In this document: positions 14,692 to 15,620 of the stretch, piece by piece
Numbering within the stretch: the first letter of the stretch is position 1
Layout of the letters: every line of letters starts with the position of its first letter
Assembly (NCBI GenBank): GCA_919901915.1
Contig: CAKKQB010000013.1
Span: 64,192-128,191, forward strand
From: Omnitrophica bacterium GWA2_41_15
Lineage (GTDB): Bacteria; Omnitrophota; Gorgyraeia; Gygaellales; Profunditerraquicolaceae
Length of the DNA: 64,000 nucleotides
Direction of reading: 5' to 3'
Translations under genes and position numbers: made by a program
Notes under the pieces: generated by a model
Told to the model about the DNA's origin: nothing
The model's input: the letters and a program-made list of their open reading frames with translations, nothing else
Database searches by the model: none

Positions 14692-14735
14692 TTTATCCGT
14701 GTATATCCGTTCTTTTATCCGTGTTTATCCGTGTC
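14692..14735 (-). promoter_or_regulatory. cluster of 4 motifs downstream of pilin copy 1 / upstream of TA pair
   Basis: tttatccgtgtatatccgttcttttatccgtgtttatccgtgtcc. Confidence 0.55.
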
Positions 14736-14736
14736 C

Positions 14737-15141
14737 TTAATACCCTGACCCCTGCGTTTGTGTTGCCGAACTCCAAACCCTGCCTGTACTTGCGTCATAA
14801 ATCCAACCCGCGGCAGTATTAGCTGCCTCTGCAACGCCTGCTACGACATTCGTACATAACGTATAAGGATTAGCAGGAACTCCATACGCCATAGGCCCGC
14901 CCGGAGAAGACGCTAAAGCCGTTAAGCTTGGCCATGTGGCTGTGCCTGAAACCGCGGTTTTAGCATACCAGATACTCACACCACTGCGCAATCCTCCTAA
15001 TGCCCCTTGCACTGATGACCTTTTAGCATCATTCTGTAAACTAAAAAAAGTTGGAATAGATACCGCCGCCAAAATTCCCAAAATAACAATAACCATAACC
15101 AACTCAATTAAAGTAAAACCGCTTCTCTTGCTTAACCTCAT
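14737..15141 (-). CDS. pilA: type IVa major pilin, copy 1
   Basis: Start set at MRLSKRSG|FTLIELVMVIVILGILAAV (RBS AGGAG 8 nt upstream); ORF-track N-terminal extension unlikely; 100% identical to copy 2 over mature region. Confidence 0.85.
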   Translation of the reverse strand: MRLSKRSGFTLIELVMVIVILGILAAVSIPTFFSLQNDAKRSSVQGALGGLRSGVSIWYAKTAVSGTATWPSLTALASSPGGPMAYGVPANPYTLCTNVVAGVAEAANTAAGWIYDASTGRVWSSATQTQGSGY

Positions 15142-15158
15142 CTTCTTTGCTCCTTTCT

Positions 15159-15198
15159 TGACACGGATTGACATGAATTTATCCGTGTTTATCCGTGT
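15159..15198 (-). promoter_or_regulatory. 2 direct + 1 inverted motif abutting RBS of pilin copy 1
   Basis: minus gacacggataaacacggataaattcatgtcaatccgtgtcaagaaaGGAGcaaagaagATG. Confidence 0.6.
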
Positions 15199-15200
15199 CC

Positions 15201-15617
15201 TTAATACCCTGACCCCTGCGTTTGTGTTGCCGAACTCCAAACCCTGCCTGTACTTGCGTCATAAATCCAACCCGCGGCAGTATTAGCTGCCTCTGCAACG
15301 CCTGCTACGACATTCGTACATAACGTATAAGGATTAGCAGGAACTCCATACGCCATAGGCCCGCCCGGAGAAGACGCTAAAGCCGTTAAGCTTGGCCATG
15401 TGGCTGTGCCTGAAACCGCGGTTTTAGCATACCAGATACTCACACCACTGCGCAATCCTCCTAATGCCCCTTGCACTGATGACCTTTTAGCATCATTCTG
15501 TAAACTAAAAAAAGTTGGAATAGATACCGCCGCCAAAATTCCCAAAATAACAATAACCATAACCAACTCAATTAAAGTAAAACCGCTTCTCTTGCTTAGC
15601 TTCACTCCCCCCCCCAT
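15201..15617 (-). CDS. pilA: type IVa major pilin, copy 2 (G9 tract at start)
   Basis: MGGGVKLSKRSG|FTLIEL...; ATG followed directly by GGGGGGGGG (C9 on + strand 15607-15615); alternative GTG start (MKLSKRSG) at 15590. Confidence 0.75.
   Translation of the reverse strand: MGGGVKLSKRSGFTLIELVMVIVILGILAAVSIPTFFSLQNDAKRSSVQGALGGLRSGVSIWYAKTAVSGTATWPSLTALASSPGGPMAYGVPANPYTLCTNVVAGVAEAANTAAGWIYDASTGRVWSSATQTQGSGY
15607..15615. repeat. homopolymeric C9 (G9 on coding strand) tract at start of pilin copy 2
   Basis: ttcactCCCCCCCCCattct; coding strand ATGGGGGGGGGAGTG. Confidence 0.9.
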
Positions 15618-15620
15618 TCT

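Follow-up and report, generated by a model that had tools for sequence, protein, structure and literature searches.

The DNA analysed here is a stretch of 64,000 nucleotides from Omnitrophica bacterium GWA2_41_15 (assembly GCA_919901915.1, contig CAKKQB010000013.1, forward-strand positions 64,192 to 128,191), referred to below as the window, and the subject is a pair of pilin genes that lie in tandem on its minus strand within a pilus gene cluster. As shown in Table 1, the pair consists of a downstream cistron (copy 1) and a promoter-proximal cistron (copy 2). Both products have the leader and mature N-terminus M(R/K)LSKRSG↓FTLIELVMVIVILGILAAV, that is, a short basic leader ending in Gly, followed by Phe+1, Glu+5 and a hydrophobic helix. 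The pilin matches the Pfam family PF07963 (N_methyl) with 32.1 bits (cut-off 21.2) and TIGR02532 with 31 bits (cut-off 16.3). A profile built from its homologues matched MshA in the PDB (9lab, E 7e-17), as well as Thermus thermophilus PilA5, Geobacter PilA and others, and the homologues are annotated as Candidatus Omnitrophota pilins, some of which JGI names MshA. An earlier note on this DNA had called the repeated gene a pilin gene, and this is borne out by the N_methyl match, the leader, the structural matches to MshA and PilA5, and the presence of PilC, PilM and PilB in the locus. Both genes are therefore predicted to be type IVa (MSHA-like) pilins. The mature protein contains one cysteine (C96), which is arginine in a sister assembly, so that a C-terminal D-region bonded by a disulfide is not found in it; the disulfide is missing in some type IVa pilins, and membership of type IVa is still possible without one. 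From the place of the pair after pilC, the near-consensus promoter, the terminators found in relatives and the JGI names, we infer that this is the major pilin.

The two genes share an exact direct repeat of 421 bp at an offset of 464 bp, and an exact repeat of this length cannot have arisen by chance. Read on the minus strand, each repeat copy comprises pilin codons 4–134 and the stop, followed by a 3′ flank of 23 bp in which two TATCCGTGT units lie, and within the 64-kb window the repeat occurs in two copies only. The 43 bp between the repeat copies (junction sequence TTCATGTCAATCCGTGTCAAGAAAGGAG) are unique sequence, so the layout is repeat, junction, repeat (R-J-R). The pilin start codon (ATG in one gene, GTG in the other), the first three codons and the ribosome-binding region lie outside the repeat and are hence unduplicated. 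The earlier note had described a perfect repeat of about 410 bp, and the exact repeat is real, but its limits were about 16–23 bp off and its reach towards the 5′ end of the gene was overstated: when the ranges proposed there (14737–15150 and 15201–15614, 414 bp) are compared, 10 mismatches appear, all within the final 16 bp, from 15135/15599 onwards.

Table 1. Features of the tandem pilin locus and of the surrounding pilus genes, in window coordinates
Feature	Position	Strand	Basis or remark
GspE/PilB-like, PilB/MshE-like ATPase	2402–4114		pilus assembly machinery; cyclic di-GMP (c-di-GMP)-binding N-terminal motif
PilM	8256–9980		pilus assembly machinery
GFxxxE minor pilin	10755–11567		pilus assembly machinery
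TPR protein, 497 aa	12476–13969		array upstream
Decamer array upstream of TPR-protein gene	13989–14043	-	TATCCGTGT unit scan
PemK/MazF toxin (14123–14455) and DUF2281-like antitoxin (14440–14634)	14123–14634	-	between pilins and TPR gene, flanked by decamer arrays
Array of four decamer units, with a strong hairpin, 3′ of copy 1	14665–14736	-	-31.3 kcal/mol, z -4.9
Repeat copy R1	14714–15134	-	421-bp identity with 15178–15598; repeat also in L006 and L008
Pilin copy 1, downstream cistron, 134 aa, MRLSKRSG↓FTLIELV..., ATG	14737–15141	-	open reading frame (ORF); Pfam N_methyl; 100% identical to P0001
Junction J	15135–15177	-	first 7 nt of copy 1 coding sequence, Shine-Dalgarno sequence, one inverted decamer unit
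Repeat copy R2	15178–15598	-	codons 4–134 and stop (pilin copy 2); two decamer units in the 23-bp 3′ flank
Pilin copy 2, promoter-proximal cistron, 134 aa, MKLSKRSG↓FTLIELV..., GTG	15201–15605	-	ORF; equals P0124
G9 homopolymer (C9 on the plus strand)	15607–15615	-	one base 5′ of copy 2 GTG
Single decamer unit and weak hairpin 5′ of copy 2	15621–15645	-	diverged counterpart of the array and hairpin 5′ of copy 1
Pseudopilin-like gene	15651–16057	-	divided by an A7 run into ORFs of 81 and 54 aa
Sigma-70-type promoter, TTGACT-17-TATAAT	15787–15815	-	11/12 with upstream TG; inside pseudopilin-like gene, 178 nt 5′ of copy 2
PilC (T2SSF)	16072–17331		pilus assembly machinery

The start regions of the two genes are different. 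Copy 1 starts as AAGGAG-N8-ATG, with AAGGAG at 15150–15155, and its start region, AAGAAAGGAGCAAAGAAGATG, is closely like that of the single-copy relative L090, TAAGAAAGGAGACGATAAGATG (relatives and other fetched loci are given here by L numbers). The GTG of copy 2 directly follows the G9 run and one further base, and an in-frame ATG upstream, at 15617, could give a 138-aa product, MGGGVKLSK...; the start region of this copy looks remodelled. In the first nine coding bases (ATGAGGTTA vs. GTGAAGCTA) there are three differences, and in the next 421 positions there are none. The products differ only in the second residue of the leader, and the mature proteins after cleavage are predicted to be identical. 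The complete mature pilin coding sequence is identical in the two copies, as the earlier note had stated. The G9 tract is the sole G/C run of at least 8 in the 64 kb, and it has a length of 9 in all four assemblies in which it is found (the window, L006, L007 and L008, each a consensus sequence). Slippage in this tract might shift the start geometry of copy 2 or the frame from the upstream ATG, but since its length is constant over the four assemblies, phase variation here is a bare possibility.

In terms of transcription, a near-consensus promoter (10–11 of 12 positions) also lies about 135–180 nt 5′ of the pilin in most of the relatives compared, namely L003, L090, L091, L092, L093, L094, L009 and L015, apparently at the place equivalent to that of the promoter in the window. 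It coincides with the spot at which the pseudopilin-like gene is split; this gene is split in all three assemblies and is a single gene of 128–129 aa in relatives, and one extra A would restore its frame. No comparable promoter was found ahead of copy 1, from which one transcript with two pilin cistrons is deduced, and both copies are probably co-transcribed from the one conserved promoter. By eye, neither a sigma-54 promoter nor PilR-type sites were seen upstream of either copy. A hairpin just 5′ of the copy 1 Shine-Dalgarno sequence, between the cistrons (15161–15199), is predicted at -17.6 kcal/mol (z -5.6), and the inverted decamer unit of the junction (15161–15169) forms its 3′ arm. Both this hairpin and the one after copy 1 (14669–14737) are without a U tract, and relatives have classical terminators past the pilin. 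It had also been claimed that the regulatory motifs were duplicated together with the gene, which is not supported: the promoter is present once, the translation-start regions differ, and the TATCCGTGT units are not specific to pilin genes, as described below.

The tandem arrangement recurs in sister assemblies. Six proteins make up the cluster of 100%-identical pilins, and they lie in pairs on three contigs. Two of these contigs, L006 (ERZ1292640) and L008 (ERZ1292638), come from the same Omnitrophota population and both carry the 421-bp repeat at the offset of 464 bp. The assemblies with the tandem structure are short-read, SPAdes-style assemblies from one aquifer study, so the repeat will have been treated alike in each. 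Over 20.4 kb, L006 shows four differences from the window at two sites (TGT>CGT, C96R; GCC>GTC, A107V), each present in both copies, and L008 shows three, of which two represent one site (GCT>GAT, A75D) in both copies and the third is a single base at 6235. The coding variants A107V, C96R and A75D, at 14822/15286, 14856/15320 and 14918/15382, respectively, are all non-synonymous, found only in the repeat and shared by both copies. Thus three of the four distinct variable sites fall inside the repeat, which makes up 2% of the sequence (P about 4e-5, our own estimate). In addition, L007, a 980-bp contig from run SRR32696707 (another sample), runs without a gap from the region upstream of copy 2 through one repeat into the sequence downstream of copy 1 (U-R-D), which is the product expected of recombination between the repeats. 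No junction-type (MRLSK) pilin contig from SRR32696707 is on record. The earlier note had proposed that copy number could change by recombination, and the U-R-D contig in a different sample lends this a little support; it hints that a single-copy form may exist in nature.

Among relatives, one pilin between the pseudopilin and TPR genes is the usual arrangement, found in L001, L003, L090 and every other-species locus of at least 50% protein identity except L089 and L091. In L091, which has 80% nucleotide identity to the window, identity between the two tandem copies sets in at about codon 7 and holds for over 345 nt; the first codons and the sequences 5′ of them differ, and the second copy contains a scaffold gap (N run). 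The two tandem copies of L089 agree at only 76% over their last 135 nt, and this duplication thus seems to be old. More distant loci show sporadic tandem pilin sets with 55–96% nucleotide identity, and one of them has three copies; tandem sets in all were seen in L036, L037, L050, L089, L091, L104 and L142. In the GTDB genome scan and the metagenome scan, no closer strain was found above about 72% identity, and exact look-ups of the window's pilins returned no record. Copy-to-copy identity is 100% in the window genome and 99% within L091, compared with 78–81% between lineages. Copies are thus 99–100% alike within each of two lineages and about 80% alike across them, and in both lineages the identity sets in abruptly a few codons past the start, as is characteristic of concerted evolution through gene conversion. 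The inter-copy spacers measure 34–59 nt, too short for orthology between the lineages to be established.

The earlier note had left the choice between a very recent duplication and gene conversion; conversion is now favoured, because 421 of the 464 positions of the period are identical, because the first nine coding bases carry three differences against none in the next 421, and because L091 shows the same pattern. A fresh tandem duplication should match over the full 464-bp period, but here 421 bp match and 43 bp are strongly diverged, so this form of duplication is excluded. When the 80-nt regions upstream of the two identity tracts are aligned, the score is 38 vs. 18.9 +/- 3.3 in shuffles (0 of 2000 reach it), and such alignable upstream regions indicate old, decayed homology, although the alignment rests mostly on the common decamer unit and hairpin. 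Past the repeat, the 3′ flanks of the copies show no significant homology.

The reading preferred here, with moderate confidence, is that of an older duplication whose 421-bp tract has been homogenised by gene conversion, giving a two-cistron dosage pair. A unit of translation-start region plus pilin gene would have been duplicated long ago, after which the two 5′ regions would have diverged, while conversion between the direct repeats would have kept the tract from codon 4 to 23 bp past the stop the same, or almost the same, in both. The two cistrons would share the single sigma-70-type promoter and be co-transcribed. Because the same mature pilin would be made from both, the pair would alter dosage and translational control and not pilus structure, and the benefit is likely to lie in a larger supply of pilin, or in another control of its production, and not in a changed pilus. 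The downstream copy would retain the ancestral AAGGAG-N8-ATG start, and the upstream copy would have a remodelled start (G9, GTG) that is perhaps sensitive to slippage. The same direct repeats would permit the loss of one copy by homologous recombination.

Several points weigh against this reading. When the junction alone is aligned with the region upstream of copy 2, the score of 16 vs. 15.3 in shuffles is not significant, and the tandem copies of the window lineage, L091 and L089 could each stem from an independent duplication. Meanwhile, a 421-bp repeat is one graph node traversed twice, so slightly different copies would still look identical; the zero divergence could partly be assembler consensus in which small real differences were flattened, and the true copy number could be above 2. 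C96R, A107V and A75D are always found in both copies, as bubble-popping would give. The shared variants have two fits, either diversifying change in the pilin followed by conversion, or real differences between the copies that were flattened; whichever holds, the copies are at least 99.3% identical beside diverged flanks.

The second of these fits can be extended to an explanation in its own right, in which the copies in the cell are set apart by as many as three non-synonymous differences (in codons 75, 96 and 107) that assemblers flattened sample by sample, and two slightly different pilins are made. This is possible, if on balance rather doubtful. It would account for the concentration of non-synonymous variable sites in the repeat, and the combinations of alleles seen (A-CA, A-RV and D-CA) are compatible with two bubbles that were popped independently, the sites being 62 and 34 nt apart; true strain differences confined to this gene, with the flanks almost clonal, would need three mutation-plus-conversion events. 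However, pilins are often under diversifying selection, which makes strain polymorphism in the pilin plausible as well, the single-copy contig L007 shows one clean allele set, and identity of this level next to diverged flanks would still require homogenisation.

Less probable, and considered unlikely here, is a very recent duplication without conversion, followed by a few local events that produced the 5′ differences. In its favour, the 421 bp show no differences, indels could account for part of the divergence upstream of copy 2 (compared with L090 and L091, there is a gap of 9 nt, and a decamer unit, a hairpin and a G run are inserted), and the single-copy form is present in another sample. 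Nevertheless, three substitutions in the first nine coding nucleotides against none in the next 421 are difficult to account for without uneven homogenisation, and the R-J-R layout cannot be decomposed into X-X. Furthermore, in L091 the identity independently has the same abrupt limit, a few codons past the start, and the tandem pair of L089, at 76%, shows that such pairs may be old in this clade.

The 3′ limit of the repeat falls within a decamer array, and these arrays extend beyond the pilin genes. Allowing at most one mismatch, 33 occurrences of TATCCGTGT (ACACGGATA when read in gene orientation) were counted in the window vs. 7.1 +/- 2.8 in shuffles, and none of 100 shuffles reaches 33. 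All 12 exact plus-strand copies lie in arrays, at 8212–8254, 13989–14043, 14694–14734, 15180–15198 and 15636 (15636–15644). The arrays consist of 1–4 units with a spacing of 10–14 nt and occupy five gene boundaries, namely 5′ of copy 2, between the copies, after copy 1, between the toxin and TPR genes, and after pilM; a palindromic version of the decamer is present at 57.39–57.45 kb (57386–57452). Decamer arrays were absent from about 160 fetched pilin loci of other organisms. In IMG/VR, the exact two-unit array pattern was found on nine contigs. The three-unit pattern, which specifies 24 bases, was found in 42 stretches of uncultivated phage contigs that otherwise show no relationship, and for it the chance expectation is below 0.01 if the collection is of the order of 1e11 bases; altogether, the element was seen in about 50 such stretches. 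The consensus, tttAACCACGGATgaACACGGATgaACACGGAT, consists of 10-nt-phased ACACGGAT units, which stand singly or, often, in head-to-head pairs that form long hairpins. Phage contigs carry up to 3 units per block, and contig L185 has up to 11 arrays; nine array-bearing contigs of the phage-locus set (L172–L219) that were checked range from 40 to 67% in GC. The decamer units are thus a widespread, apparently undescribed element and not pilin-specific regulatory motifs.

As for the nature of this element, a site for a host DNA- or RNA-binding factor, an element like the repetitive extragenic palindromic (REP) sequences and a recombination substrate were considered, and none was confirmed. When the 2380 ORFs of 48 phage loci were clustered with a view to a shared array-binding protein, no family was present in more than five loci, and the ORF-based distance from phage arrays to the next start codon could not be told apart from that of random positions. 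Rfam gave no match on 7900–16200 and only sub-threshold microRNA-like hairpins in the phage loci, and a literature search for the array strings found no match. The site consensus of CsrA/RsmA is (A/U)CANGGANG(U/A), with A(N)GGA in hairpin loops. ACACGGAU matches this consensus except at one position, and its GGA lies in the stems of the predicted hairpins; no CsrA-like ORF was found in the 64-kb window. Three other identities were rejected: a DnaA box, as TTATCCGTG agrees with TTATCCACA at 6/9 positions only and misses the ACA half; an integron attC site, as the GTTRRRY core is missing and the flanking genes keep their synteny with relatives; and transposon ends, as the arrays are all in direct orientation. 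It may be speculated that the arrays gave microhomology for rearrangements, since the 3′ repeat end lies in an array and arrays flank the toxin-antitoxin module. A broader proposal, in which a conserved host factor would bind the arrays, and the arrays would set pilin expression and would also have been the recombination substrate for both duplication and toxin-antitoxin insertion, with G9 adding tuning of the first cistron through slippage, is doubtful.

The arrays also enter an explanation in which the second pilin and the toxin-antitoxin module were inserted as cassettes through recombination at the arrays, in place of classical unequal crossing-over with later conversion. Here, arrays bound each unit in the order array, pilin 2, array, pilin 1, array, toxin-antitoxin module, array, TPR gene, the 3′ limit of the repeat fits, the toxin-antitoxin module is missing in relatives, and the array element is found in many phage contigs. 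Yet a recombinase gene is absent from the locus, the arrays are all in direct orientation and without an integron-type attC core, and on its 5′ side the repeat ends within the coding sequence and not at an array, so that such an insertion appears quite improbable. Least credible of all is an assembly artefact, in which either one gene was expanded or two strain variants differing in their 5′ ends were joined into a chimera, an option which the earlier note had raised: the structure is known only from short-read metagenome assemblies, a 980-bp single-copy contig exists from another sample, and the N run in the second copy of L091 marks a region hard for assemblers, but the junction is unique, with the 3′ end of one pilin on one side and the 5′ end of the other on the other side, the 23-bp shared decamer stretch is shorter than typical final k-mers, so that reads joining the copies are implied, and the identical structure appears in three separate assemblies, with tandem pilins in relatives as well.

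The remainder of the locus includes a PAS-kinase/PilZ protein, a response regulator and minor pilins, together with the genes of Table 1. The PemK/MazF-DUF2281 module is absent at this place in all relatives examined. The pilus locus is also rearranged (2402–4114, 17279–21525): carB, carA and a purF-like gene stand beside pilC, a place taken in relatives by the PilB/MshE ATPase and response regulators, and the ATPase lies here about 12 kb away, past the kinase gene, whereas in relatives it is next to pilC. Between purF and efflux-pump genes is a DUF433/DUF5615 gene pair (21899–22552), which is probably a second toxin-antitoxin-like module. A 177-bp repeat is present at 8025–8201 and 51992–52168 with 93.8% identity and terminal inverted repeats of about 18 bp (GGGGCTGTTGC...GCAACAGCCCC); it resembles a miniature inverted-repeat transposable element, and one of its copies adjoins the decamer array after pilM. 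In L090 (2233–2290) and L091 (1635–1710), another short tandem repeat, TAGGCGATAGGCTA, follows the pilin in 2–3 copies and folds into a terminator, and the 3′ flank of the pilin gene is thus a site of lineage-specific short repeats.

Type IV pili are thought to mediate attachment in ultra-small, possibly host-dependent Omnitrophota. In this groundwater member of the group, the gene of the probable major pilus subunit is a dynamic locus, which appears to have been duplicated and homogenised and possibly varies in copy number, and the pilin is the sole gene with coding variants over 20 kb of otherwise clonal sequence. The locus also serves as a warning: where a short-read metagenome assembly shows identical tandem copies, small differences between paralogs or additional copies may go unseen. 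The less usual by-products of the analysis are the decamer-array element shared with phages and the clustering of coding variation in the pilin.

Tandem pilin paralogs are known from Streptococcus sanguinis (pilE1/pilE2), Synechocystis (pilA1/pilA2) and Pseudomonas stutzeri (pilAI/pilAII). The pair described here resembles them in having two complete genes head to tail in a pilus cluster; those known pairs are diverged and often different in function, whereas the mature proteins here are identical. Neisseria pilE/pilS likewise involves non-reciprocal recombination among pilin copies, but there truncated, promoterless silent donors diversify one expressed gene, whereas here two full-length genes would be homogenised; no silent pilin cassettes were found in the window, and both copies are full length, each with a start codon. 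Homopolymer phase variation, for which PMC4235727 is a general review, is known from the poly-G tract in the signal-peptide region of Neisseria pilC. The position of G9 exactly at the start of copy 2 is similar to such loci, but its length is the same in four assemblies, and the downstream GTG and the second intact copy would blunt any on/off effect.

With the MSHA-type or type IVa pili of Omnitrophota, the locus shares a class III signal pilin, PilC, PilM, a PilB/MshE-like ATPase and minor pilins. It has been reported that type IVa pili are common in Omnitrophota (PMC10066038). Tandem identical pilin genes are not mentioned in that report, and the locus described here differs further in that the ATPase is not beside pilC.

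Another close parallel, in evolutionary terms, is concerted evolution by RecA-dependent gene conversion, as known for tufA/tufB of Salmonella and E. coli and for rRNA operons. As in those genes, the paralogs are near-identical within a genome, orthologues diverge, and there is a sharp shift to diverged flanks. Unlike the tuf genes, which are distant and inverted, the pilin genes form direct repeats 464 bp apart, so that copy loss or amplification is possible. The event itself is a familiar bacterial gene duplication, a known kind of event in a new organism.

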